23,561 nt of DNA from positions 1 to 23,561 of the forward strand of contig PWTC01000002.1 of NCBI GenBank assembly GCA_003563005.1. Reading direction: 5' to 3'. The position numbers and the translations under genes are program-made. The notes under the pieces were generated by a model. That model was not told the DNA's origin. It made no database searches and saw nothing but the letters and a program-made list of their open reading frames with translations. Origin of the DNA: Candidatus Acetothermia bacterium (lineage in GTDB: Bacteria > Bipolaricaulota > Bipolaricaulia > Bipolaricaulales > Bipolaricaulaceae). Shown one piece after another: positions 3,222-13,221 of the stretch; position 1 is the stretch's first letter, and the number at the start of each line of letters is the position of its first letter.

Positions 3222-3975
3222 GACAAGGATCCCCGAAGGGTACACGAAGGTGTTCACCCGCCCCGAGGCGCTGTCCGACGCCCAGTACACGTATTGCCCG
3301 GGCTGCCATCACGGCGTGATCACGCGCCTCGTCGCCGAGGCTCTCGACGAGCTCGGCATACGGGGACGCACCGTGGGCATCGCGCCTGTAGGATGCGCTG
3401 TGTTCCTGTACCGCTTCTTCAACTGCGACTTCGTGCAGGCCGCCCACGGGCGCGCCTGTGCTGTGGCCACGGGACTGAAGCGCGCGAACCCTGATTTGGT
3501 CGTCTTCTCCTATCAGGGCGACGGCGATCTGGGCGCGATCGGGACCGCGGAGACGGTGCATGCCGCCAACCGCGGAGAGAACATCACCGTCATCTTCATC
3601 AACAACCAGATCTACGGGATGACCGGGGGGGAGATGGCCCCAACTACGCTCCCGGGTCAACGCACGGTGACCTCGCCCGGCGGGCGCGACACGCGCCTTA
3701 TGGGTTACCCGCTCAAAGTTTCGGAGATGCTCGCCCAGCTCGACGGTCCTTGCTATATCACGCGACAAAGCGTGCACGACGCGCGTCACGTGGGGCTCAC
3801 GCGCAAGGCGATCGTGCAGGCGTTCCGCAACCAGCTCGAGGGAAAGGGGTTCTCCTTGGTGGAAGTGCTTGCCGCGTGCCCCACGAACTTCAAGATGTCG
3901 CCCGAGCAGGGCAACACCTGGGTCGTCGAGAAGGCGATGAAGGCTTTCCCCCTCGGGGATCTCAAAGGGGCATGA
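3208..3975 (+). CDS. 2-oxoacid:ferredoxin oxidoreductase beta subunit (TPP-binding)
   Basis: CPGCHHG and GDGD...NN TPP/FeS motifs. Overlaps alpha by 14 nt and gamma by 4 nt (ATGA). Confidence 0.9.
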   Translation: MPMVETRIPEGYTKVFTRPEALSDAQYTYCPGCHHGVITRLVAEALDELGIRGRTVGIAPVGCAVFLYRFFNCDFVQAAHGRACAVATGLKRANPDLVVFSYQGDGDLGAIGTAETVHAANRGENITVIFINNQIYGMTGGEMAPTTLPGQRTVTSPGGRDTRLMGYPLKVSEMLAQLDGPCYITRQSVHDARHVGLTRKAIVQAFRNQLEGKGFSLVEVLAACPTNFKMSPEQGNTWVVEKAMKAFPLGDLKGA

Positions 3976-4538
3976 ACATGGAACAAGGCATCGTGTTCGC
4001 GGGGTTCGGAGGACAGGGCGTTCTGCTGGCCGGGAAGGTGCTGGCCCGCGCCGGGATGGAGCACGGCCTGGAAGTCAGTTGGCTGCCCTCGTATGGGCCG
4101 GAGATGCGCGGCGGGACGGCGAACTGCACCGTGGTGCTGTCCGACGCGCTCATCGGCGCGCCGAACGTGGACGCGCCACAGGCGCTTGTGGCGATGAACC
4201 AACCCTCGCTGGACAGGTTCGAGCCCCAGCTTGTCCCCGGTGGTGTCGCCATACTCAATGCGTCGCTCATCGCGCGCGAGGCTCGGAGATCGGACATCAC
4301 CGTGGTGCCGATCCCCATGAACGACATCGCCCGTGAGCTGGACGCACCCCGCGCGATCAACATGGTGGCTCTCGGGGCTCTACTCCGCGCGCTCGACACC
4401 GTGCCCCTCGAGGTCGCTGGCGATGCCATCGCCCTGGAGATGGAGGAGCGGGGTCGCGCCAAGCTCGGCGAGGTGAACCGGTTGGCCCTGCAGCGCGGCT
4501 ATGAGGCTGCTAGCTCGGTTCTGCAGGCTGGGGCCTAG
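3972..4538 (+). CDS. 2-oxoacid:ferredoxin oxidoreductase gamma subunit
   Basis: MNMEQGIVFAGFGGQGVLLAGKVLA is the typical gamma-subunit start. The true start is internal to six-frame ORF 3750..4538 and is coupled to the beta stop. Confidence 0.85.
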   Translation: MNMEQGIVFAGFGGQGVLLAGKVLARAGMEHGLEVSWLPSYGPEMRGGTANCTVVLSDALIGAPNVDAPQALVAMNQPSLDRFEPQLVPGGVAILNASLIAREARRSDITVVPIPMNDIARELDAPRAINMVALGALLRALDTVPLEVAGDAIALEMEERGRAKLGEVNRLALQRGYEAASSVLQAGA

Positions 4539-4547
4539 GGTGACGCG

Positions 4548-4736
4548 TCAGACCTTCTGCACCTTGCCGGCCTTGAGACAACTCGTACACGCCTGGATTC
4601 GGCAGCGCTTGCCAGCCAGCACCGCGCGCACGCGCTGAAGGTTCGGCAGACGCACGCGCTTTCCGTGCTTGCCCGAGTGGCTGACGGTCGCGCCGAACGC
4701 CGGTCCCTTACCGCAAATGTCACATCGTCTTGACAT
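4548..4736 (-). CDS. rpmB: 50S ribosomal protein L28
   Basis: MSRRCDICGKGPAFGATVSHSGKHGKRVRLPNLQ is the L28 signature. The ATG at 4736 has an AAGGAG RBS at correct spacing. The upstream GTG at 4742 is an unlikely start. Confidence 0.85.
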   Translation of the reverse strand: MSRRCDICGKGPAFGATVSHSGKHGKRVRLPNLQRVRAVLAGKRCRIQACTSCLKAGKVQKV

Positions 4737-4745
4737 GAGCACTCC

Positions 4746-5402
4746 TTAGTCGATCGGGCCCTGGACATACCAGGGCTCCACAGGTTCCTGCTTCTCCGCA
4801 CCGCCGGCACGCCATCTGGCGTGCCCTAGGCGCGCCACCTCAAGCGCCTCGGGGTGCTCCCACTTCGTCCCGCCCGGGCGGACGCCCGGCGCCCGTTCCG
4901 CGAGCTCAGCCGCGTACCGCACCGCACCCGTGCCCACGACAAGCACATCGCTTCTGTCGTGCAGCTTCGCCACGGCCTCTTCGGCGCGCAGCACAGCCTC
5001 GGCGCCCGCGCGACGTCCGCTGATCCATGACGCGTAGAGCACATCGTCCCGATCATGGATCCACACCGCCACCCTGCCGGGCCACCAACGGGCGGCCGCG
5101 AACCCGAGCACCTCGGCCTGGCGAACACCGATCACGGGAACCCCGCTTGTCCGTGCCAAGCCGTGAGCGAACGCAAGGCCGATACGCAGCCCGGTGAACG
5201 AACCCGGCCCCACATCCACGCTGACCAACCCCAGCTCGCACGGGGCGACATCGCCAAGCCTCAGCACCGCGTCCACACACGGAGCGAGAAGCTCTACATG
5301 AGCCCGCCCGGCGCGGAACGCGGCCTCGTAGGAAGGCCCATCCTCACGCCAGAGGGCAACACCCCCGCGCTCGCCAGCCGTCTCGATGCCAAGGACCCAC
5401 AC
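4746..5402 (-). CDS. tsaB: tRNA threonylcarbamoyladenosine biosynthesis protein TsaB (YeaZ family)
   Basis: MWVLGIETAGERGGVAL...VDVGPGSFTGLRIG are hallmark TsaB motifs. Confidence 0.85.
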   Translation of the reverse strand: MWVLGIETAGERGGVALWREDGPSYEAAFRAGRAHVELLAPCVDAVLRLGDVAPCELGLVSVDVGPGSFTGLRIGLAFAHGLARTSGVPVIGVRQAEVLGFAAARWWPGRVAVWIHDRDDVLYASWISGRRAGAEAVLRAEEAVAKLHDRSDVLVVGTGAVRYAAELAERAPGVRPGGTKWEHPEALEVARLGHARWRAGGAEKQEPVEPWYVQGPID

Positions 5403-5491
5403 GGGGGCGAATCGTACCGTCCTCCGCCCACACGTACAACCTGCCGCGCCGCATCCATCGGCACTACAGGTGGGCAGGGACGCGCACGGCG

Positions 5492-6508
5492 CTAGAGGAG
5501 CCGGGACACCGAGGCGTGGCCCAGGTGCTCCCGCGCCCGCTCCGTCGCCACCCGCCCCTGCGGCGTACGCCGCAGGAATCCTTGGGTGATCAGGTAGGGT
5601 TCGAAGACGTCGGAGATGGTGTCCTTGTCTTCGCCTGTGGCCGCAGCGAGCGTCTCCAGGCCGACCGGACCTCCGTCGAACCGCTCCAGCATGATCGAAA
5701 GGAGGTTCCGATCTGCGCTGTCCAGCCCTGCCTCGTCGATGCCGAGCATATCGAGCGTACGTCGGGCCAGCGCCCGGTCCACCGTGGACGCGCCCTCCAC
5801 CTGCGCTACGTCGCGCGCCCGCCTGAGCAGTCTGAGCGCGATGCGCGGCGTGCCTCGGGCGCGGGCCGCAAGCTCATGCGCCCCGTCTTCGGCGGCACAG
5901 ATGCCCAGCCTCTCGGCAGCTCTGGCGACGACGATCGCCAGTTCCTCGGCGGTGTAGAACTCCATGCGGAACGTCACCTCGAATCGATCGCGCAGAGGCG
6001 AGGTCAACAGGCCTTCGCGGGTCGTCGCCCCCACCAGCGTGAACGGCGCCACGTCGAGGCGGATCGACCGGGCGTGCGGCCCTTCTCCCAGCACGATGTC
6101 CAGCTTGTAGTCCTCCATCGCAGGGTACAGGACCTCCTCGACGGGCCGGCGAAGGCGGTGGATCTCATCGATGAACAGGATGTCCCCGCGTTCGAGTCGG
6201 GTGAGGATCGCCGCCAGGTCGCCCGGGCGCTCGATCGCCGGGCCCGAAGAGACCTTGATCCGCGCCTCCATAGACTCGGCCAGGATGTGAGCCAGCGTCG
6301 TCTTGCCCAAGCCTGGCGGGGAAAGGAGCAACACGTGATCCAGCGGCTCGCTCCGGGCCCTGGCTGCTTGGATGAAGATGCGTAGCCGCTCCTTGACGCC
6401 CTCCTGACCGACGAACTCGTCCAAAGTCCGGGGGCGCAGGGCCCGCAGCGGGCGCTCGTAATCCTGCTCTTCCTGTCCCACTGTGCGCTCTGACATTCTC
6501 ATGGTCAT
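5492..6508 (-). CDS. ruvB: Holliday junction branch-migration helicase RuvB
   Basis: Walker [11 protein letters not shown], Walker [11 protein letters not shown], conserved RuvB blocks throughout. Start chosen at the ATG at 6508 (MTMRMSE) with a GGGGAGAGGG RBS. The upstream 33 codons of the six-frame ORF were rejected. Confidence 0.93.
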
Positions 6509-6538
6509 TGTAGCCCTCTCCCCGAAGGCCGCAACACG

Positions 6539-6567
6539 TTGCCGTGCGCGCCCCACAGACGTAGAAT
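6539..6567 (+). promoter_or_regulatory. Sigma70-like promoter: TTGCCG, 17 nt spacer, TAGAAT (6562-6567), 9 nt before ATG 6577. Likely a leaderless or near-leaderless transcript.
   Basis: Hexamers and spacing. There is no room for an SD sequence before the ATG. Confidence 0.35.
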
Positions 6568-6576
6568 GAACGGGCC

Positions 6577-7443
6577 ATGTGCTGGAAGCTCGTGCTGCTC
6601 TGCACACTGACCGTGCACTTCTGGGCGTGGGGCGGGTACGACAACGTGACCAGCCTCGATTGGTCCCCCAAGGGAGATCAGATCCTGTTCACCCACCAGG
6701 GCCAGCTGTACATCGGCGATGCGCCCAGCGGCGCCAACCACGTGGCGCTGACCTCGGAGCCGAGCCCGGTGGACTGGGGCCGCTTCTCGCCGGATGGCGA
6801 CTGGGTCACGTACGTGACGGCTGTAGAAGGCGGCTATAAGCTCTGGCAGCACATGCTGGCGGACAACGAGCGCAGGGAGTTGCACTTCTCCTCCCGCTAC
6901 ATCGGCCAACCCACGGTGGATCCCTCGCGGGACACCCCGCACACGCGGATCGCTTTTGTGGGGGAGATCGAAGCGACAAGAGGTAGGGGCACGGAGTTCG
7001 CGCTGTTCCTCATGGACCTTGAGTCTTCGAGGATCGACCGCATCATGTCTGTTCCCTGGCCCGTGGCGACCCCCGACTTCTCGCACGACGGTCGCCTCGT
7101 CGTGTTCGTCGGGCTGTGGGAGGCGAGCTGGGACCTGTTCGTGTTGGACATCGAGCGCGAGGAGTTCGAGCAGCTCACAGAGGACGGCTACTTCAACTGG
7201 TGTCCTCGCTTCTCACCCGGCGACAGATGGATCGCCTTCGAATCGAGAAGGAACGAGGTCTCGCACATCTACGTGATCCGTCGCGAGGGGACCGACCTCA
7301 CTCGGGTCACGCTGGCCGAGAGCGACGAGCCGATCGCGGTCTCGAGGAACGCCTTCCCCTCCTGGTCCCCTGAAGCGGACGTCATCCTCTACGCCTCGCT
7401 CCGCTTTGGCGGATGGGTGTTCTTGACGGAAGGGACCGAGTAG
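6577..7443 (+). CDS. Periplasmic PD40/TolB-like beta-propeller repeat protein with signal peptide
   Basis: Signal-like [19 protein letters not shown]. Repeated [32 protein letters not shown]40 blades. Confidence 0.8.
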
Positions 7444-8321
7444 TCCAGGTGCGCGCTGTAGCGGTAGGTCGTTTTGACGGGGTGCACGTGGGCCATCAGG
7501 CCCTGCTCGCTGCGGGCCGCCGCTTCGCGCAAGCGCGCGGCCTCCGCTTGATGACGTTCACATTCCCGCCAGACCGTCCGGCGTTACTGCCTCTCGCCGC
7601 CAGAGAGAAGCTCCTGCGCGCTCTCGCCGACGAGGTGTACGTGTGCCCTTGGGAGGACGTGCGGCACCTGGATGCGGAGGCGTTTCTCCGGGACGTGGTG
7701 GTGGATCAACTGGACGGGGTGGGGCTCATCGTGGGGCACGACCACCGTTTCGGTGCGGGAAGAGGCGGGGACCTCGCGCTCGTGAGGCGTTTGAGCGGCC
7801 CGCTGGGGCTGGAAGTCGTACCTGTCCCACCTGTTCACCACGGGGGATCCCCAGTGAGCGCGCGCAGGATCCGGGCACTGGTGCAACGGGGAGCGGTGGC
7901 CGATGCCGCAGTGTTGCTCGGCCGTCCGGTGATGCTGTTCGGCGACCCAGTGCGCGGTGCAGGCCTAGCACACCGATTGGGCTATCCCACGGTCAACCTG
8001 GCACTGTGGCCCGGGACGGTGGCCCCTGCTCCCGGGGTGTACGCAGCCCATGCCTACCGGTGTCCACAGGGACGCCAGGCTCTGTTCTACATCGGAGACC
8101 GCCCCACTTTCCCTGGCCTTGGGGCCTCGGCGGAGGTCCACTTCCTCGATGCCCCGCCTGCGGGCTCCGGTTCGGTCGAGGTTCATCTGTGGTCCCGTCT
8201 GCGCCCCGATCGCGCCTTCCCCAGCTCCGAGGCGCTCGTCGAGCAGATGGGGCAAGACCGTCGGGAGGCCGAGGCACTGCTGACCGCGCGTATGCCGGAA
8301 ACGCCGGTGCTGCTGGGCTAG
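7413..8321 (+). CDS. ribF: Bifunctional riboflavin kinase / FMN adenylyltransferase
   Basis: VAVGRFDGVHVGHQAL nucleotidyltransferase motif; C-terminal riboflavin kinase region. An alternative GTG start at 7449 would avoid overlap with the upstream gene. The 3' end overlaps the convergent gene by 4 nt. Confidence 0.85.
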   Translation: MGVLDGRDRVVQVRAVAVGRFDGVHVGHQALLAAGRRFAQARGLRLMTFTFPPDRPALLPLAAREKLLRALADEVYVCPWEDVRHLDAEAFLRDVVVDQLDGVGLIVGHDHRFGAGRGGDLALVRRLSGPLGLEVVPVPPVHHGGSPVSARRIRALVQRGAVADAAVLLGRPVMLFGDPVRGAGLAHRLGYPTVNLALWPGTVAPAPGVYAAHAYRCPQGRQALFYIGDRPTFPGLGASAEVHFLDAPPAGSGSVEVHLWSRLRPDRAFPSSEALVEQMGQDRREAEALLTARMPETPVLLG

Positions 8322-8863
8322 GTCCGGCGGATGAACGCGCGTGCTCCCTGGAGGAACTCGCCCACGACGCCGCCGAACCTCCGCCAGTCCGCCAGCAGCG
8401 CGAAGAGGATCCACAGCACACCGGCATAGGCGACGAGAGTTTCACCGCGCAGATAAGCCAGCACGTAAGGGCCGAACACCCAAGGGACGGCGAGCAGCAT
8501 GGTCAACGACTTGAACTTGAGGAACTCCCCCGTCCGCGTGTAGGAGAGAACGGAGAGCGACACAGCGACAAGCAGGTACACGAGCCCCACGCCCCGGTGC
8601 ACCAGGCCCGTCGCCACGAGGTACACCGCCGAGGACAGCACCATCAGCATGTCGAAGTGGAATTCGTGTTCGCCGACCCAAGTCGGGGCCGTCTCCAACC
8701 TCCTGGCGAGCCTGCCGTCCACAAGATCCGTGGTCCAACCGAGCAGGAGCAGCCACAGCACCGAAGTCAAGGCGGCAGAGCCTGCCGGGATCAGACCCAG
8801 AATAGCCATCCCCACGGCCCCACGGCTCAACGTCAGCAGGTCGGGCAGTGCCTTTCTGTTCAT
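8318..8863 (-). CDS. CDP-alcohol phosphatidyltransferase family membrane protein (PgsA-like, second half of catalytic motif divergent)
   Basis: DLVDGRLARR matches D-x2-D-G-x2-A-R. The downstream G-x3-D-x3-D part is imperfect. About 6 hydrophobic segments. The ATG at 8863 is preferred because an extended -10 TGTATAAT (rc of 8876-8883) lies 12 nt upstream. Alternative GTG start at 8884. Confidence 0.55.
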   Translation of the reverse strand: MNRKALPDLLTLSRGAVGMAILGLIPAGSAALTSVLWLLLLGWTTDLVDGRLARRLETAPTWVGEHEFHFDMLMVLSSAVYLVATGLVHRGVGLVYLLVAVSLSVLSYTRTGEFLKFKSLTMLLAVPWVFGPYVLAYLRGETLVAYAGVLWILFALLADWRRFGGVVGEFLQGARAFIRRT

Positions 8864-8886
8864 AGGCTTGGGTGCATTATACACCC

Positions 8887-11835
8887 CTAACCTCCAACCC
8901 GGAGTCCCTCATCCAATGGTGAGAAGCGGACCCGCGCCTCTCGGAAGGCTGGCACCTCCACCGTGAGCCGCACCCCGCGGAGGTCCACCTCAAGGCCCGT
9001 GCGCAGACATCCGTCCCAGATGCGCAGGACGCTCACACCCAGCTGGCGTGCCGCCCCGATCACCCCATCGAACTCCGCCCACAGGTGCAGGGCCCAGATG
9101 TCGCTCTCCCACACAACCTCCCCTGAGATCCGCTTGAAAACCAGCGGATCGAGGCCGATCCGGAGACCGCCCACGAGCTCTCCCAAGGAAGCCAGCTGGA
9201 CCCGACCGCGGACGATCACGTCCTCCCACTTCAGCGGGTCCAGGTCCGCGGCTCCATCCAACGTGAGTCTCCCGCCATCCCACGCGCGCTCCACCTTCCA
9301 CGAGAAGCGCTGCGGACTGAGCGGGATCGGTACAAAGGACAAGCTGATCGTGACGTCCTCCACGCTCATCTGCCAACGGGCCGGCAGCGCTCTGCCTTCC
9401 GCCAAGTCCAATCCTGCGCTGAATGACTGGCTCCAACCGTCGGACTCGCCGCGCACCGACAGCGTGGTTGTGCTGCGGGGAGGTTGGGCATCGAAACCAA
9501 ACGGCGTCCGCCCCACGCCCCACCGGCCTTGGTAGCCCAAGGTCAGCGCGCCAAGGCGCCACGCGGGAGTGAGAGAACCCACCAAGCGTTCCGTTCCGTC
9601 ATAGAGATCAACCATCATGCTCCAGGGCACCTGGAGGCGGGTGCCCCCGAGCCCCAGCTCGGCCGCCCAGGAGAGCGCCAGGCCGGTGCGCCAGCTCTCC
9701 AGTTCGTCCTCACGGTAGTGCCCGTGCCGTAGGGTCGCCGCCACCGTACCTCCGAGCCACTCCGTGCCGCGGCTGGAGAGCGACAGTTCCGGCAACCGCT
9801 CGAATACGATGCCGTCACGCTCGACGCGTCCCCAAAGGAGCGATCCATCCCAGGCGCCCAGCGGCCCCCGCGCGGAAGCCTCTACTCGTCCGTCCTGCAC
9901 ATCGAGGACGGAGCGCCATGCTCCCCATGGTGTGTCCCACGCAGCGCGCAGGCGGGCTCTTCCCGGGTCCAAGGACAAGTCTCCGCGCTCCCAGAACAGG
10001 TCCAGTGTGGGATGCAGTTCGCCGCGGGCGGGCAGCCAGGTCAACCCTAGCGCGCCCCAGAGCTCTTCCTGCAACGCCCACGGAATCGTCCAGCGCAGGA
10101 ACCAGTCTCCTTCGAGTCGTCCGATTTCGGGGAAAAGCGGCGATGCGTCCTCACCGAGCCGCGCGGCGTACACGGGCAGCCAGCCGGTGGGCACGCCGAA
10201 CGCCTCCACGCGAACGTTCTCCGCGTAGAGCCAGCGCTCCGGAAGCAAGACGAACCGACCCGCCGCGACGCTGTAGGGCGGGGCATCGAGGCAGGGGCAG
10301 CTGGTGAACACCGCATCGCGCGCCTCCAGCCGTGTCACCTCGCCCTCGCTGAAACTGGCGCGCCCCCAGGCAGCACGGTATACGAGCACTTCCTCCTTCT
10401 CGGGTCCGGAGAAGTCCGACCGGCCGGCGAGTCCCTCGGCCACGGCGCTCTCGAGCCCTCCAGAGCGATCGAACTGAGCGACGATGCGGTCTGCCGCAAG
10501 CTCCATGCCCGTGCCTGCAAGCCAGGCGCCACGCGCCTCGACCGTCCAGCCGACCGGCCCTTCCTTCGCCAGAAGCCAGTCGGCCTCGATCTCGTAGCCC
10601 TCGAGCTTGGCCGCCACCTGCCAACCCTCGAGGTACGCAGCGTCCTCCGCCACCACCAAGCGCTCGGCAACAAGCTCGGTGAAAGGTAGCGGCGCCCCGA
10701 ACCCCACCGTCCCGATGAGGAACGCGCCGAGCACCCCCCGCAGCCGCCAGCGGTCGATGGAGACGAATGCCCAGATCCCCAGCGCCACAAGGAGGATGTG
10801 GGGAAGCCAGGCCCCCAGCGAGGCGGGCATCATCCCGCGCCGGGCCATGGTCCGCGACCAGAGGAACAGGGCCTGCGCCGCCCCCACGATCACGAAGCCG
10901 GCGATCGCCCCCGTCGCTCTGCCACGCTTGCCCAGCAACGCGCCGAGCGGCGCGCCGAACAGGGCGAACACCGCGGCCGCCGCGGCGACGGCCAGCTTGG
11001 AGTGATACTCGACCACCAAGTGCCTCGGGTCGAGCCCAGAGCGGGTCAGCAGGTCGATGCGGGCGGAGAGCTCACGCAGGGACATCTCGCTCGGCGTCTT
11101 CCCCCCGAGCACGGCCTGGTGGACGTCCTCACCGACCTCCAGCCGCAGGCTGTCGAATCGGAGGACTTCCTCCAGCACCCCTTGCGCCGTGAACCTGAGC
11201 AGCTGGCCCTCGGACAGGAGCAGATCGCCTCGCTCGAAACGCGCCTCGACGGCCGTCACCACAGAAGGGAAACGGCCTTCGGGGGGGAAGATCCGTCCGG
11301 TCAGATCGTAGACGACGACGCCCCGCGCACGCTCCCCATCGTAGTGCTGCACGTAGTAGAGCTCCCCTTCGTGTCCTCGGAAGAACACGTGTTCCTGAAG
11401 GGTGGGGACCTCGCCACGGTACAAAACGCTCAGGAGCTCCCTGCGGTAGGCCTCTTCCGCTGAGGGCACGACGAACTCGGCCGTCACAAACGAGACCACG
11501 CTGGCGAGGATCCCAAACCAGAGGATCGGGACCAGCGTCCGCCGCAGCGAGTAACCGACCGTCTGGAAAGCCAGGAGTTCACGGTCGGCTGCCAGCCTTC
11601 CCAGGGCCAGGAACACGGACAGCAAGACCCCGGCGGGGATGGCGAAGGTGAGCAGGCTGGGGAGCTTGTAGACCAGCAGCCTGAGCATCGTGCCGGCCCC
11701 GACGCCCCGGGCGAGCATCACGTCCGAGAGCGAGAGCACAAGCTCCAGCCCGATAAACACGAGGAACGCCAGCAACGCAACCCCGAAGGGCGGCCACAGC
11801 TCTCCCCACACGTAACGATCGATCCGTCGCAGCAC
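8887..11835 (-). CDS. Fusion protein: N-terminal LptF/LptG-family permease, extra TM segment, then OstA/LptA-like plus LptD-C-terminal-like domain (982 aa)
   Basis: From GTG 11835 the protein reads MLRRIDRYVWGELWPPFGVALLAFLVFIGL..., i.e. YjgP/YjgQ architecture (3 TM, periplasmic domain, 3 TM, ending about aa 365). An in-frame hydrophobic segment (GVLGAFLIGTVGFGAPLPF) follows. Around aa 507-590, FTSCPCLD...ENVRVEAFGVPTGWLPVY...SPLFPEIG...DWFLRWTIPW aligns with the E. coli LptD block FTTC...WNARFKVGPVPIFYSPY...RRSGFLIP...YFEFYLPYYW. The W/G-rich C-terminus has a lone Cys near its end. The 5' 229 codons of the six-frame ORF (11836-12522) are antisense to miaB and were rejected. Confidence 0.6.
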   Translation of the reverse strand: MLRRIDRYVWGELWPPFGVALLAFLVFIGLELVLSLSDVMLARGVGAGTMLRLLVYKLPSLLTFAIPAGVLLSVFLALGRLAADRELLAFQTVGYSLRRTLVPILWFGILASVVSFVTAEFVVPSAEEAYRRELLSVLYRGEVPTLQEHVFFRGHEGELYYVQHYDGERARGVVVYDLTGRIFPPEGRFPSVVTAVEARFERGDLLLSEGQLLRFTAQGVLEEVLRFDSLRLEVGEDVHQAVLGGKTPSEMSLRELSARIDLLTRSGLDPRHLVVEYHSKLAVAAAAAVFALFGAPLGALLGKRGRATGAIAGFVIVGAAQALFLWSRTMARRGMMPASLGAWLPHILLVALGIWAFVSIDRWRLRGVLGAFLIGTVGFGAPLPFTELVAERLVVAEDAAYLEGWQVAAKLEGYEIEADWLLAKEGPVGWTVEARGAWLAGTGMELAADRIVAQFDRSGGLESAVAEGLAGRSDFSGPEKEEVLVYRAAWGRASFSEGEVTRLEARDAVFTSCPCLDAPPYSVAAGRFVLLPERWLYAENVRVEAFGVPTGWLPVYAARLGEDASPLFPEIGRLEGDWFLRWTIPWALQEELWGALGLTWLPARGELHPTLDLFWERGDLSLDPGRARLRAAWDTPWGAWRSVLDVQDGRVEASARGPLGAWDGSLLWGRVERDGIVFERLPELSLSSRGTEWLGGTVAATLRHGHYREDELESWRTGLALSWAAELGLGGTRLQVPWSMMVDLYDGTERLVGSLTPAWRLGALTLGYQGRWGVGRTPFGFDAQPPRSTTTLSVRGESDGWSQSFSAGLDLAEGRALPARWQMSVEDVTISLSFVPIPLSPQRFSWKVERAWDGGRLTLDGAADLDPLKWEDVIVRGRVQLASLGELVGGLRIGLDPLVFKRISGEVVWESDIWALHLWAEFDGVIGAARQLGVSVLRIWDGCLRTGLEVDLRGVRLTVEVPAFREARVRFSPLDEGLRVGG

Positions 11836-11875
11836 AGGCCATGTTAGCCCCGCTCCCACGGGACGCGCCAGCCGG

Positions 11876-11905
11876 TTGAGCCGGCGGAACGCGCTTGGGT
11901 ATGCT
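11876..11905 (+). promoter_or_regulatory. Candidate promoter for miaB: TTGAGC (11876-11881), 18 nt spacer, TATGCT (11900-11905), 11 nt before ATG 11917. Near-leaderless.
   Basis: Same -35 hexamer as the 1446 promoter. Sits in the divergent 80-bp intergenic region. Confidence 0.3.
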
Positions 11906-11916
11906 CTACACTGCCC

Positions 11917-13221
11917 ATGAACGCCTGCGTCCTTACCTGGGGTTGTCAGCTCAACGCGCACCGATCTGAGGAGATCGCGGGCGTCCTGGCCGCCGCCGGC
12001 TACCGCCTGGTGGAGCGGCCCGAGGACGCCGATCTCGTCGTGCTGAACACGTGCATGGTTCGTGAGCGCGCCGAACAGAAGGTCGTGGGCCGTGTGGGCC
12101 AGCTCAGCGGGCAGAAGCGTGATGGCCGTCCCCTGATCGGGGTGGGAGGATGCATGGCCCAGGGGCGGGCGGAAGCCATGATCGACCTCTGCCCTGGAGC
12201 GGATTTCGTGTTCGGAACTGGCAACCTTGCCGACATCCCCGAGCTGGCTGCGTGTGCCCGCCCCGGGAGGCCGATCGTGTCGGTGCCTGCCCCCGGTCGT
12301 AATGGCACTGCGCTTCCCGTGGTGCGCTCCAGCCGCTTCCAGGCCTATGTCCCCGTCTCCGAAGGCTGCAGCCATGCCTGCGCCTACTGCGTCGTGCCCC
12401 GCGTTCGCGGTCCCTTGAGGTCGCGCCCACTCCCTGACGTCATCGCCGAGCTTCGCCAGCTCGCCGAGGAGGGTTATCTTGAGGCAACGTTGCTTGGGCA
12501 GAACGTGGACGCCTATGGGCAAGATCTGAACGATGGGACGGATTTCGCAGCCCTGTTGAGGGAGGTGTCACAACTGCCTCTGGCCCGCGTTCGGTTCACG
12601 AGTTCTCACCCGGCCTATATCAGCGACGAAGTGCTTTCGGCCATAGCTGAAGCGGGGAACATCTGTGAGCACCTTCACCTCGCGGTTCAGTCCGGGTCCG
12701 ACCGCGTGCTCAGGGCGATGCGTCGGGGATACACACGCGAGGCGTTCGCCCAGCTCGCTGCACGTGCCCGCGCAGCGATTCCGGGACTGAACATCACCAC
12801 GGATGTGATCGTGGGGTTCCCCGGCGAGGACGAGGTGGACTTCGAGGCGACCCTGGCCCTCATCCGTGAGATCGAGTTCGGCAGCGTGTTCGTGGCCGCC
12901 TACTCACCCCGGCCATACACCCGCGCAGCCACCCTCACCGATTGCGTGCCGCCGCAGGAGAAAGGGCGCCGTCTCTCCGAGGTTCTGACTCTTTCTCGTT
13001 CCATCGCGGAAGCGCTTCATCAGAAGCGCTTGGGCGTCGTGGAAGAGGTCCTTGTGGAGGGACTCCTTCCGGGGGATGGACTCCTCCACGGGAAGACGCG
13101 CGACCATCGGACGGTGCTCTTCCCAGGTGATGCGGCTATGATCGGGGCGATGACCCACGTACGCATCACCCGAGCTGCTTCCGGGGCGATGCACGGCATT
13201 CCGGAGGTGGAGCCCACATGA
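11917..13221 (+). CDS. miaB: tRNA (i6A37) methylthiotransferase, radical-SAM MTTase with TRAM domain
   Basis: MTTase N-domain TWGCQLNAHRSE. Radical SAM block SEGCSHACAYCVVPRVRG has the CVVP-RG pattern of MiaB rather than RimO/MtaB. C-terminal TRAM-like region. Confidence 0.75.
   Translation: MNACVLTWGCQLNAHRSEEIAGVLAAAGYRLVERPEDADLVVLNTCMVRERAEQKVVGRVGQLSGQKRDGRPLIGVGGCMAQGRAEAMIDLCPGADFVFGTGNLADIPELAACARPGRPIVSVPAPGRNGTALPVVRSSRFQAYVPVSEGCSHACAYCVVPRVRGPLRSRPLPDVIAELRQLAEEGYLEATLLGQNVDAYGQDLNDGTDFAALLREVSQLPLARVRFTSSHPAYISDEVLSAIAEAGNICEHLHLAVQSGSDRVLRAMRRGYTREAFAQLAARARAAIPGLNITTDVIVGFPGEDEVDFEATLALIREIEFGSVFVAAYSPRPYTRAATLTDCVPPQEKGRRLSEVLTLSRSIAEALHQKRLGVVEEVLVEGLLPGDGLLHGKTRDHRTVLFPGDAAMIGAMTHVRITRAASGAMHGIPEVEPT

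Follow-up and report, generated by a model that had tools for sequence, protein, structure and literature searches.

The protein closest in layout to the one described here is the "fusion pABC permease" G4FGC1 of Thermotoga maritima (Sexton et al. 2023, PNAS, PMC10160955), in which LptF/G-, LptA- and LptD-like domains are joined in one polypeptide of an LPS-free atypical diderm. Sexton et al. read it as one uncut chain, and they neither treat the junction as a signal peptide nor raise cleavage (PMC10160955). Another LPS-free diderm, Borrelia burgdorferi, has an LptD-type translocon, BB0838, that lacks a recognizable LptE and belongs to an Lpt system whose cargo is surface lipoproteins, but BB0838 is encoded by its own gene and LptF, LptG, LptC, LptA and LptB are likewise separate (bioRxiv 10.1101/2022.12.21.521298). 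In the Terrabacteria diderm Veillonella parvula, MlaD with its C-terminal beta-barrel combines an inner-membrane (IM) lipid-transport component and an outer-membrane (OM) barrel in one polypeptide (PMC10665443). MlaD, however, belongs to the MCE/Mla family, has no polytopic permease before its N-terminal anchor, and possesses a long helical stalk able to span the periplasm. In the canonical LptB2FGC-LptA-LptDE system of Proteobacteria, the components are on separate genes and the permease is an LptF/LptG heterodimer.

We analyzed a 23,561-nucleotide stretch of contig PWTC01000002.1 from a Candidatus Acetothermia bacterium of the Bipolaricaulota (hereafter, the window), in which one gene encodes a permease, a seventh hydrophobic segment (TM7) and an LptD-like translocon (Table 1). 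This architecture is not new, since the same layout was described in Thermotoga maritima in 2023 (PMC10160955). We liken G4FGC1 to the Bipolaricaulota fusion by its described layout; it comes from another phylum, and there are no Thermotogae isolate proteins among the matches listed. The frame has no internal stop codons on translation, and its best start is the GTG at position 11835. The NCBI gene call (P0001, 974 aa) would drop D6 and Y8, both invariant in an alignment of 35 homologues. All sequence motifs quoted in the original prediction for this gene are present, including CPC and the lone Cys in DGCLR.

Table 1. Features of the fusion gene and its immediate neighbors in the window.
Feature	Residues	Position	Strand	Remarks
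Whole fusion ORF		8887..11835	minus	982 codons + stop; LptF/G permease + signal-peptide-like TM7 + LptD-like translocon
LptF/LptG-type ABC permease domain	1-362	10750..11835	minus	six TM helices
Periplasmic beta-jellyroll of the permease	140-236	11128..11418	minus	between TM3 and TM4
Seventh hydrophobic segment (TM7)	363-386	10678..10749	minus	WRLRGVLGAFLIGTVGFGAPLPFT; internal signal peptide or signal anchor
OstA/LptA/LptD_N-type beta-jellyroll	387-565	10141..10677	minus	
C513-P-C515		10291..10299	minus	jellyroll end
LptD-type large antiparallel beta-barrel domain	566-982	8890..10140	minus	~26-28 predicted strands
C943		9007..9009	minus	conserved Cys close to barrel C-terminus (in DGCLR)
CDP-alcohol phosphatidyltransferase-like membrane protein		8318..8884	minus	188 aa; PF01066, 30 bits
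Intergenic region, presumed promoter region		11836..11916		81 bp; shared with divergent miaB
miaB		11917-13221	plus	divergent from the fusion

The first 362 residues are a bona fide LptF/LptG-type ABC permease. The Pfam family PF03739 (LptF_LptG) matches aa 7-357 (E = 1e-75; 255.3 bits, the family cut-off being 27.9) over profile positions 1-351 of 353, and this match together with Foldseek bears out the claim of a full permease made in the original prediction. AlphaFold, hydropathy and Foldseek agree on six TM helices, the third and fourth of which flank a beta-jellyroll. The helices were modeled with pLDDT of about 85-93, the jellyroll strands (148-233) lie within the PF03739 match, and the hydropathy profile shows six strong segments and then, at about 365-386, a less hydrophobic seventh. 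Comparison to LptG and LptF structures gave target-normalized TM-scores of 0.73-0.78 (Foldseek). By the NCBIfam equivalogs TIGR04407 and TIGR04408, the permease is neither an LptF nor an LptG orthologue, as it scores equally on both and misses both cut-offs (151.8 and 149.7 bits versus 230 and 240). All 35 homologues share residue E86, located in the TM2-TM3 loop, and its position is presumably consistent with that of the coupling residue (LptF E84/LptG E88) of E. coli. One permease type was seen in the Bipolaricaulota fusion, in contrast to the canonical heterodimer; other Terrabacteria likewise have a single "LptF/G" permease (PMC13018214).

The C-terminal part (aa 387-982) is a remote but genuine LptD homologue, the evidence for homology being its fold and a transitive profile, not a direct family match. 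A Pfam search of aa 386-982 returned nothing at E ≤ 1, and both profiles that the original prediction would have led one to expect, PF03968 (LptD_N) and PF04453 (LptD), fail on the window protein. Its C-terminal 600 aa have no direct match in Pfam, NCBIfam or PDB sequences, and a direct profile of this part against PDB sequences found only LptA (E = 1.7). Among 13 relatives, one matches PF03968 (3e-5) and one matches PF04453 (0.0028), and in sister fusion clades a PF03968 match above the cut-off begins immediately after TM7. A Bipolaricaulota-only profile finds 854 proteins. Among the best 150, some stand alone at a length of 650-830 aa, and several of these carry PF03968. The profile of the window's clade reaches such stand-alone relatives at E-values of 1e-15 to 1e-80. 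The joint profile of the window's domain and these relatives matches solved LptDs (E-values from 8e-34 to 2e-24).

Structure prediction points to the same family. In the AlphaFold models (pLDDT of 83.9 for the full-length protein and 85.6 for the C-terminal part), aa 387-982 form a beta-jellyroll and a large beta-barrel, for which DSSP on the predicted model counts about 26-28 strands, the exact number being uncertain. The best 15 Foldseek matches of the full model are full-length LptDs, followed by LptG/LptF, while the best 37 matches of the C-terminal model are all LptD (E-values down to 6.8e-20) and its best non-LptD match has an E-value of 4e-5. AlphaFold, Foldseek and the transitive profile thus agree on an OstA-type jellyroll followed by an LptD-type barrel, in line with what had been proposed from the sequence.

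Conserved residues match those of LptD as well. None of C513, C515 and C943 varies among the 35 aligned homologues; in a 66-sequence family alignment, C513 is invariant and C943 nearly so. In the joint-profile alignment, the family column of C513 falls on the conserved Cys in the N-domain of Pseudomonas aeruginosa LptD and that of C943 on its CC pair, and the TTC and HC Cys motifs of the joint profile align with cysteines of LptD. The block singled out in the original prediction as an "LptD junction" aligns, in the family profile, with the jellyroll-barrel junction of Pseudomonas LptD. The further proposal that the lone C-terminal Cys pairs with CPC agrees with LptD in its Cys columns (C513 and C943), and the disulfide itself is a predicted one. 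The fusion therefore resembles the canonical system in permease fold, jellyroll-plus-barrel translocon, junction block and Cys columns; it differs in that permease and translocon are fused and in that its barrel domain is shorter (417 aa versus about 550 aa in E. coli LptD).

Could the C-terminal part be some generic barrel, whether porin-like, usher-like, Omp85-like or a surface domain, functionally unrelated to Lpt and similar to LptD through a shared large-barrel fold? We regard this as very improbable, given that the combination of jellyroll and barrel matched LptD alone in the searches run, that 15 orders of magnitude in Foldseek E-value separate LptD from any other fold, and that the transitive match (E = 8e-34) brings the junction block and both Cys columns into register. 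Moreover, the fusion partner of this domain is an LptF/G permease, and its Firmicute counterparts lie among lptC/lptA/lptB-like genes. We are accordingly highly confident of the architecture and the LptD homology.

The 982-codon fusion ORF is real and uninterrupted. About 77 clusters of full-length proteins (42-86% identity) from Bipolaricaulota/Acetothermia MAGs keep it in a single ORF, and because these come from many independent assemblies, an assembly accident can be dismissed as its origin. A scan of genomes at the species level found permease, jellyroll and barrel in one stop-to-stop frame in 35 of 41 informative syntenic loci; of the others, four are cut by a contig end and two are apparently frameshifted. 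Conservation of the fusion in orthologues, on which the original prediction hinged, is thus established. The two split frames could be taken to mean that a missed stop, a frameshift or a chimeric contig joined two separate genes, as could a syntenic metagenome contig, L092, where the gene is split at the junction into ORFs of 382 and 531 aa. In L092, however, about 110 nt are deleted and conserved residues are lost with them; this deletion accounts for the split, so the contig shows a damaged fusion gene and does not preserve an ancestral arrangement of two genes. Given also that the single frame persists in independent clusters at identities as low as 42% and that more distant clades carry one frame too, the chance of an artefact is negligible.

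Fused LptF/G-LptD-like proteins also occur in diderm Firmicutes (P0155 from Halanaerobiales; P0165, P0187 and P0193 from Bacillota MAGs). They are distantly related to the Bipolaricaulota proteins (barrel HMM E-values of 1e-10 to 1e-19) and share with them the three-part architecture and the signal-peptide-like junction. Unlike the Bipolaricaulota genes, they reside within LPS/outer-membrane clusters, adjoining LptC/LptA-like genes, an ABC ATPase and lpx genes.

Around the Bipolaricaulota fusion, the setting is different from that of a canonical Lpt system. The window holds no lptB, lptA or lptC, as originally noted, nor any LptE candidate or lpx gene, and both lptB and lpx genes are also absent from the neighborhoods of loci L001, L003 and L004. 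Across the loci covered for this phylum, none of LptB, LptA, LptC and LptE was identified. LptE has been reported missing in diderm Firmicutes (PMC13018214) and Borrelia (bioRxiv 10.1101/2022.12.21.521298) as well. Unlike G4FGC1 as described, the fusion is paired with a CDP-alcohol phosphatidyltransferase-like gene, which begins 2 nt past its stop codon and is probably co-transcribed with it. The encoded protein conserves the motif DxxDGxxAR...GEH[ED]FxxD. This gene lies directly downstream of the fusion in all 41 informative loci of the window's clade and in the distant L004, and is absent from that position in other Bipolaricaulota clades. On the other side, the arrangement with miaB recurs in L089 and L092, and no sigma-70-like consensus was found in the intergenic region.

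The two halves are joined by the seventh hydrophobic segment that had been predicted, which would place the C-terminal rest outside the cytoplasm. TM7 has a hydropathy of 1.5-1.6, with RWRLR on its cytoplasmic side; it is unpacked in the AlphaFold model (pLDDT < 50) and is the least conserved of the TM segments (0.50 versus 0.61-0.83). In position and layout, it is the counterpart of the signal peptide with which unfused LptD-like relatives begin, and it matches the n-h-c organization of that peptide. For example, the signal peptide of the unfused P0113 (...PMSAFAQTEEIP, followed by LELTADE) is nearly superimposable on the junction of the fused P0094 (...LSAFAQDEEKKIP, followed by IDLTADQ). 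Inspection by eye found a positive n-region, a hydrophobic h-region and a small-residue c-region at the junction of 107 fused proteins with a jellyroll match and of six Firmicute fusions. The Firmicute fusions have textbook AXA sites, and AXA-plus-acidic cleavage-site features are present in most fusion clades other than the window's. In the window's clade, a conserved Pro-Pro-Phe comes after a stretch of small residues, P384 is invariant among the 35 homologues, and a count of -3/-1 motifs did not separate TM7 from control regions. Proline at +1 blocks signal peptidase I. Judged from its sequence, the junction resembles a signal peptide that was retained and may be cleavable.

Alternatively, TM7 may be a permanent signal anchor. 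The product would then be one chain with the permease in the IM and the barrel in the OM, that is, a covalent trans-envelope lipid conduit and tether, probably homodimeric. We consider this a credible but less than even prospect. The fusion has long been kept in several lineages (Bipolaricaulota/Acetothermia and Bacillota, including Halanaerobiales MAGs, with the layout also reported in Thermotogae), which could mean that the covalent link itself is useful. Both the Pro-Pro-Phe directly after the small residues and the invariant P384 fit an uncut chain, as do the two to three tandem jellyrolls of some clades, as if bridge length mattered, and Veillonella MlaD is a predicted precedent for an IM protein fused to an OM barrel (PMC10665443). 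However, the linker from TM7 to the barrel is a single jellyroll of about 175 aa, which at a roughly estimated 6 nm is too short for an ordinary periplasm; that of T. maritima is about 70 nm wide (PMC10160955). The canonical cleavage-site features of most other clades and the unconserved, unpacked TM7 also speak against an uncut chain, and a homodimer would bear two tethered barrels. The separate LptC/LptA-like genes and ABC ATPase kept beside the fusion in Firmicute loci favor two products. We therefore lean slightly toward a cut product, and put the odds of cleavage by signal peptidase I after TM7 at even or marginally better. A model for such "one gene, two proteins" expression is FbcH, the cytochrome b/c1 precursor of Bradyrhizobium japonicum, which is reportedly cut by signal peptidase into two proteins (work attributed to Thony-Meyer and colleagues, 1991). 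In FbcH, too, an internal signal peptide links a polytopic membrane protein to an exported domain after it; the precursor belongs to an unrelated family, and its cleavage is experimentally shown whereas that of the fusion is predicted.

Taken together, we propose an ancient conserved fusion of both ends of an Lpt-type lipid export pathway. The permease part would insert into the cytoplasmic membrane, TM7 would drive Sec export of the C-terminal 600 residues, and BamA would fold the barrel into the outer membrane. Cleavage by signal peptidase I would yield two proteins in a fixed 1:1 ratio: a free OM LptD-like translocon and an IM LptF/G, the latter probably homodimeric and driven by an unlinked ATPase of the LptB type. 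As a whole, with the cleavage step included, we give this account an even chance.

Because a closed Bipolaricaulota genome was reported without LPS genes (Hao 2018, PMC6092417) and the window likewise lacks them, LPS is an improbable cargo; the most likely one is another IM-made amphiphile, namely a glyco- or phospholipid, or lipoproteins. Precedents for non-LPS Lpt cargo exist in Thermotoga (PMC10160955) and Borrelia (bioRxiv 10.1101/2022.12.21.521298). The occurrence of the same fusion inside complete lpx/LPS outer-membrane clusters of Halanaerobiales and other Bacillota MAGs means that the architecture is compatible with LPS transport, and the organism could conceivably make an LPS-like glycolipid exported classically by this LptF/G and LptD. 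The closed genome (PMC6092417), the lack of lpx genes in the window and the three neighborhoods surveyed, and the wide miss of the LptF/LptG equivalog cut-offs (152 and 150 versus 230 and 240 bits) make this highly unlikely; classical LPS cannot be the cargo if the phylum is without lpx genes. A broader conjecture, which we think improbable, is that an uncut homodimer with an unlinked ATPase staples IM to OM, serves as the main anterograde route for bulk (glyco)lipid in LPS-free diderms, and represents the ancestral Lpt state of Terrabacteria. If that ancestral state were true, separate lptF/G and lptD would have arisen by fission, with P0117 and P0113 as fission products.

The 600-residue LptD-like half escapes Pfam, and the database names seen for the Bipolaricaulota gene are "LptF/LptG (YjgP/YjgQ) family permease" or hypothetical protein. 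The apparent absence of lptD in "atypical diderms" (PMC8871954) and in Halanaerobiales/Negativicutes (PMC5007114) has been used as evidence on the origin of the outer membrane. Such tables of lptD presence and absence change once Bipolaricaulota and Halanaerobiales/Bacillota MAGs are seen to carry an LptD homologue hidden in a fusion with LptF/G, a layout also reported in Thermotoga. The fusion gene is also a concrete candidate for the supply of lipids or lipoproteins to the outer membrane of LPS-free diderms.

The fusion frame runs without interruption through 982 codons and a stop, as the original prediction had it. A longer stop-to-stop frame reaching 12522 is not credible, as it overlaps with miaB, which is divergent. 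A purine-rich stretch precedes the GTG at 11835, and a start at this codon retains D6 and Y8, two residues that are invariant in 35 homologues. The public version of the protein (P0001, 974 aa) starts 8 codons further downstream and loses both; because these residues are omitted, comparison with the homologues suggests that the public start codon is probably mis-called. The window (G+C of ~66%) carries housekeeping neighbors; no lptA, lptB or lptC lies within it, in line with the original prediction that none is adjacent. A promoter and terminator scan of positions 8100-12100 returned nothing above chance.

Coordinates of the fusion, its neighbors and the homologous loci discussed in the text
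Feature	Sequence	Position (nt)	Strand	Remark
LptF/G permease-TM7-LptD-like fusion	window	8887-11835	minus	
Start region omitted from P0001	window	11812-11835		
Conserved C-terminal stretch (aa 959-982)	window	8890-8960		
CDP-alcohol phosphatidyltransferase-like gene	window	8318-8884	minus	188 aa; 2 nt past fusion stop
Housekeeping neighbors	window			oligopeptide ABC ATPase, pyruvate:ferredoxin oxidoreductase subunits, TsaD-family (PF00814) gene, ruvB, PD40 propeller
Housekeeping neighbors	window			ribF, miaB, pfkB, DinG-like helicase, cation-efflux protein, S49 peptidase, SPFH protein
Halanaerobiales fusion	L006, MAG JARRCS010000004.1	8001-11180		
Bacillota fusion	L007, metagenome contig	8001-11243		
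Split fusion	L092, JGI Ga0366840_1026166	5001-7741		
Unfused LptD-like gene (P0117)	L005, Candidatus Bipolaricaulia MAG	8001-10370		
Unfused LptF/G and 850-aa protein	L093, ENA ERZ27247707 contig	5452-9071		
ABC-2 exporter arrangement	L076, CP070725.1, Bipolaricaulota bin446	3920-6507		35 similar loci among L051-L087

The predicted conservation of the fusion in orthologues was borne out. A large protein collection holds 97 relatives of the window protein, ~77 of them full-length proteins of 947-1035 aa with 42-86% identity. All named relatives come from Candidatus Bipolaricaulota/Acetothermia (former OP1) MAGs, with the sole exception of one partial protein from a Caldiserica-labelled MAG, and the sources include two closed genomes, those of Ca. 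Bipolaricaulis sibiricus and strain J31. Two further word-indexed homologue searches retrieved close relatives only (26 and 11 matches). We also scanned one genome per species using the small downstream gene as the seed, which yielded 80 Bipolaricaulota loci; two of the 43 closest lack upstream sequence, leaving 41 informative. Directly upstream of the small gene, permease, jellyroll and barrel HMMs fall in a single stop-to-stop frame in 35 of these 41 loci, while four are cut by a contig end and two are apparently frameshifted. Such conservation of one frame excludes a frameshift, a chimera or an assembly artefact as the source of the fusion. On one metagenome contig syntenic with the window (L092), the fusion is split at the junction into ORFs of 382 and 531 aa by a ~110-nt deletion. 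Because the deletion removes conserved residues, the aligned sequences indicate a damaged fusion and not an ancestral two-gene state. A pseudogene or a mistake in assembly is the probable explanation for this locus.

The N-terminal part belongs to the LptF/G family. Residues 7-357 match PF03739 (LptF_LptG) end to end (255 bits), and the AlphaFold model, built from 35 sequences with a pLDDT of 83.9, shows six long helices and, at 148-233, a jellyroll; its target-normalized TM-scores against LptG and LptF chains are 0.73-0.78. The permease is therefore complete, as originally proposed. In the TM2-TM3 loop, E86 is invariant, and its position fits what we take to be the LptB-coupling glutamate. 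The LptF and LptG equivalog models score equally, both below cut-off, and in this respect the permease resembles the single "LptF/G" of a diderm Firmicute, which has been reported as a homodimer (PMC13018214).

Direct Pfam and NCBIfam searches of the C-terminal half found nothing, so that of the Pfam families proposed for the protein, PF03739 was matched and PF03968 and PF04453 were not matched by this half. A 13-sequence clade profile searched against PDB sequences retrieved only LptA (E 1.7). Because direct searches were empty, we used structure prediction and a broadened profile. The model of the domain alone (pLDDT 85.6, pTM 0.62) is all-beta, with a jellyroll of ~175 residues followed by ~26-28 long antiparallel strands. 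In Foldseek searches against the PDB, the 15 best matches of the full-length model are full-length LptD (E 5e-18), and each of the 37 best matches of the domain model is an LptD (E 6.8e-20 to 8e-6); the top-ranked non-LptD fold is the FimD usher (4e-5).

Sequence homology to LptD was closed transitively, via stand-alone relatives and a joint profile. The clade profile matched 854 proteins at E ≤ 1e-3 among 1.84 billion representatives. Among the best 146 of the 854, 74 have a stand-alone jellyroll-plus-barrel architecture (67 of the 74 are 600-830 aa); PF03968 lies at the N terminus of five of eight stand-alone matches scanned, and the source of one stand-alone relative, P0151, calls it LptD. 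A joint profile of 66 sequences (the window domain plus stand-alone relatives) matches solved LptDs (E 8e-34 for Pseudomonas aeruginosa, then 1e-26, 1e-25 and 2e-24), as well as LptA (5e-11) and LptC (8e-3). In this profile, the family block "sfTTCdlekphY...lfwlPyy...llPeiGy...Gwfvk" aligns on the jellyroll-barrel junction of LptD; its window equivalent, "FTSCPCLD...GWLPVY...LFPEIG...DWFLRW", had already been recognized as an LptD junction block. Two conserved Cys columns (C513 and C943 in the window protein) face the conserved N-domain Cys and the C-terminal CC pair of LptD, presumably C173 and C724/C725 of the Escherichia coli protein, which form interdomain disulfides. The suggested likeness of the CPC motif and the lone C-terminal Cys to the LptD cysteines thus appears sound at the level of aligned columns. 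In longer sister clades, PF03968 is matched above cut-off (21-27.5 bits) immediately after TM7. Fold, transitive profile match and cysteine pattern place the C-terminal part in the LptD family as a remote member, at scores below Pfam thresholds. Its last residues (aa 959-982, EVPAFxEAxxRFxPxDEGLRxGG) are among the most conserved stretches, with A963, F964, P973, D975 and L978 invariant; they are predicted with low confidence and lack the terminal aromatic residue that outer-membrane beta-signals typically have.

This domain layout has a published precedent in G4FGC1, the Thermotoga maritima "fusion pABC permease," which was detected in the toga fraction and is conserved in all Thermotogae (Sexton et al. 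2023, PMC10160955); our literature search found no other mention of such a fusion. Among the best 146 of the 854 matches, 22 join an LptF/G domain to a jellyroll and/or barrel (21 with a barrel, one a partial sequence). Save for the partial one, they are 978-1188 aa long, and they belong to several clades; named members come from Acetothermia, Halanaerobiales, Halanaerobiaceae and other Bacillota MAGs. Two Firmicute loci that we fetched show a classical outer-membrane cluster of BamA, OmpH, the fusion, LptC/LptA-like genes and an ABC ATPase, and the Halanaerobiales locus also encodes LpxD, LpxC, FabZ, LpxA, LpxI and LpxB. No LptD could be found in Halanaerobiales and diderm Firmicute lineages by Antunes et al. 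2016 (PMC5007114). Just downstream in the Halanaerobiales locus lies a 785-aa protein without a Pfam match.

Family members vary in other ways. P0095, P0096 and P0097 (759-790 aa) are not the same fusion: they are tandem LptF-LptG proteins with two PF03739 domains per polypeptide, a different kind of Lpt gene fusion. The N terminus of the unfused P0117 ("MLNRLDPYLLRLR..FTFLILILIL") aligns with the N terminus and TM1 of fused LptF/G with a score of 51 (shuffles, 33.6 ± 3.8, maximum 46), and from this alignment it looks as if an internal permease deletion turned TM1 into a signal peptide. On L093, next to a Pup-proteasome cluster, a stand-alone LptF/G of 356 aa, with 31% identity to the window domain, has a 4-nt overlap with the end of an 850-aa protein without a Pfam match; the two may represent, in another phylum, an unfused LptF/G and LptD-like pair in reversed order. 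Fused and unfused members alike carry from one to ~three jellyroll units ahead of the barrel, for example P0115 (942 aa), P0119 (884 aa), P0121-P0127 (~775-808 aa) and P0098-P0104 (1134-1188 aa), as if LptA-like bridge modules were built into the LptD-like polypeptide. Among L009, L010, L036, L038, L050 and L052-L087, many contigs with clearly Bipolaricaulota-type genes and synteny carry the label "uncultured Thermotogae/Thermotogaceae bacterium," and others are labelled Caldisericota or Neomarinimicrobiota; the MAGs have probably been given the wrong taxon.

At the junction, TM6 is followed by DRWRLRG, ~19 uncharged residues (VLGAFLIGTVGFGAPLPF) and TELVAE, the strand that opens the next domain. 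TM7 has no invariant position, its mean column conservation is 0.50 (versus 0.61-0.83 for TM1-6), and pLDDT falls below 50 only here and at the extreme C terminus. Across the 107 fused proteins whose junction the jellyroll HMM could anchor, the segment looks like a Sec signal peptide, with n-, h- and c-regions that are basic, hydrophobic and rich in small residues, respectively, the last lying 3-10 residues before the jellyroll. Longer Bipolaricaulota clades and Firmicute fusions have a textbook AXA as c-region, with acidic residues after it (e.g., "LSAFA|QDEE," "PAPARA|AGDNK" and "SPHAVA|ENIPVE"). Unfused relatives of the C-terminal part have an ordinary signal peptide at exactly this position: unfused P0113 reads "...PMSAFAQTEEIP|LELTADE" and fused P0094 "...LSAFAQDEEKKIP|IDLTADQ." Because of the low conservation, the low pLDDT, the n-h-c layout and the match to these signal peptides, we conclude that TM7 is signal-peptide-like, and would be a signal peptide kept from an lptD-like gene when it became fused to lptF/G.

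The analysis establishes which domains are present, that the fusion is conserved and that its junction resembles a signal peptide, and a route for the chain can be proposed. The permease part would enter the inner membrane, TM7 would start Sec export of the LptD-like part, and BamA-family machinery would fold the barrel into the outer membrane; an outer-membrane "bacterial surface antigen" gene reported for the phylum (PMC6092417) is taken to encode an Omp85/BamA-family protein. An LptB-like ATPase encoded elsewhere would power extraction, which the invariant E86 fits. That signal peptidase cuts the chain into two proteins is, in our estimate, an even chance or slightly better. The junction has the look of a canonical cleavage site in most clades, is homologous to real signal peptides, and is unconserved and without predicted packing; separate LptC/LptA-like genes also persist beside the Firmicute fusions. 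An uncut chain forming a single trans-envelope conduit is the less probable reading, favored by how long several lineages have kept the covalent link and by a conserved Pro-Pro-Phe that follows the small residues in proteins of the window's clade. The count of -3/-1 "AXA-like" motifs after TM7 leaves room for it too, as it does not discriminate (33/35 sequences, versus 26-34/35 in control loops). The single jellyroll between TM7 and the barrel, ~6 nm by rough estimate, argues for cutting and against a conduit when set against the ~70-nm-wide periplasm of T. maritima (PMC10160955).

Because LPS genes are absent from a closed Bipolaricaulota genome (PMC6092417) and from Thermotoga (PMC10160955), and because the Borrelia LptD handles surface lipoproteins (bioRxiv 10.1101/2022.12.21.521298), by analogy the cargo is most likely a non-LPS lipid or a lipoprotein. 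The small downstream gene, which keeps the DxxDGxxAR motif and a shortened G-x2-[ED]-x3-D motif, hints at a phospholipid-type cargo. It is paired with the fusion in all 41 loci of the window's clade and in the distant L004. In a second Bipolaricaulota clade it follows an ABC-2 exporter (ATPase and ABC2_membrane permease) and not an Lpt fusion, still adjoining ruvB, and in the clade of P0108 it is absent from the fusion locus; a functional link to the fusion is therefore suggestive only.

Taken together, these results confirm the observation and support the structural interpretation of the original prediction. Beyond the layout known from Thermotoga, the fusion is present phylum-wide in Bipolaricaulota and occurs in LPS clusters of diderm Firmicutes, from which LptD was thought to be absent. 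Its junction is newly recognized as a probable retained signal peptide, so that "one gene, two proteins" becomes a serious rival to a single-chain trans-envelope conduit.
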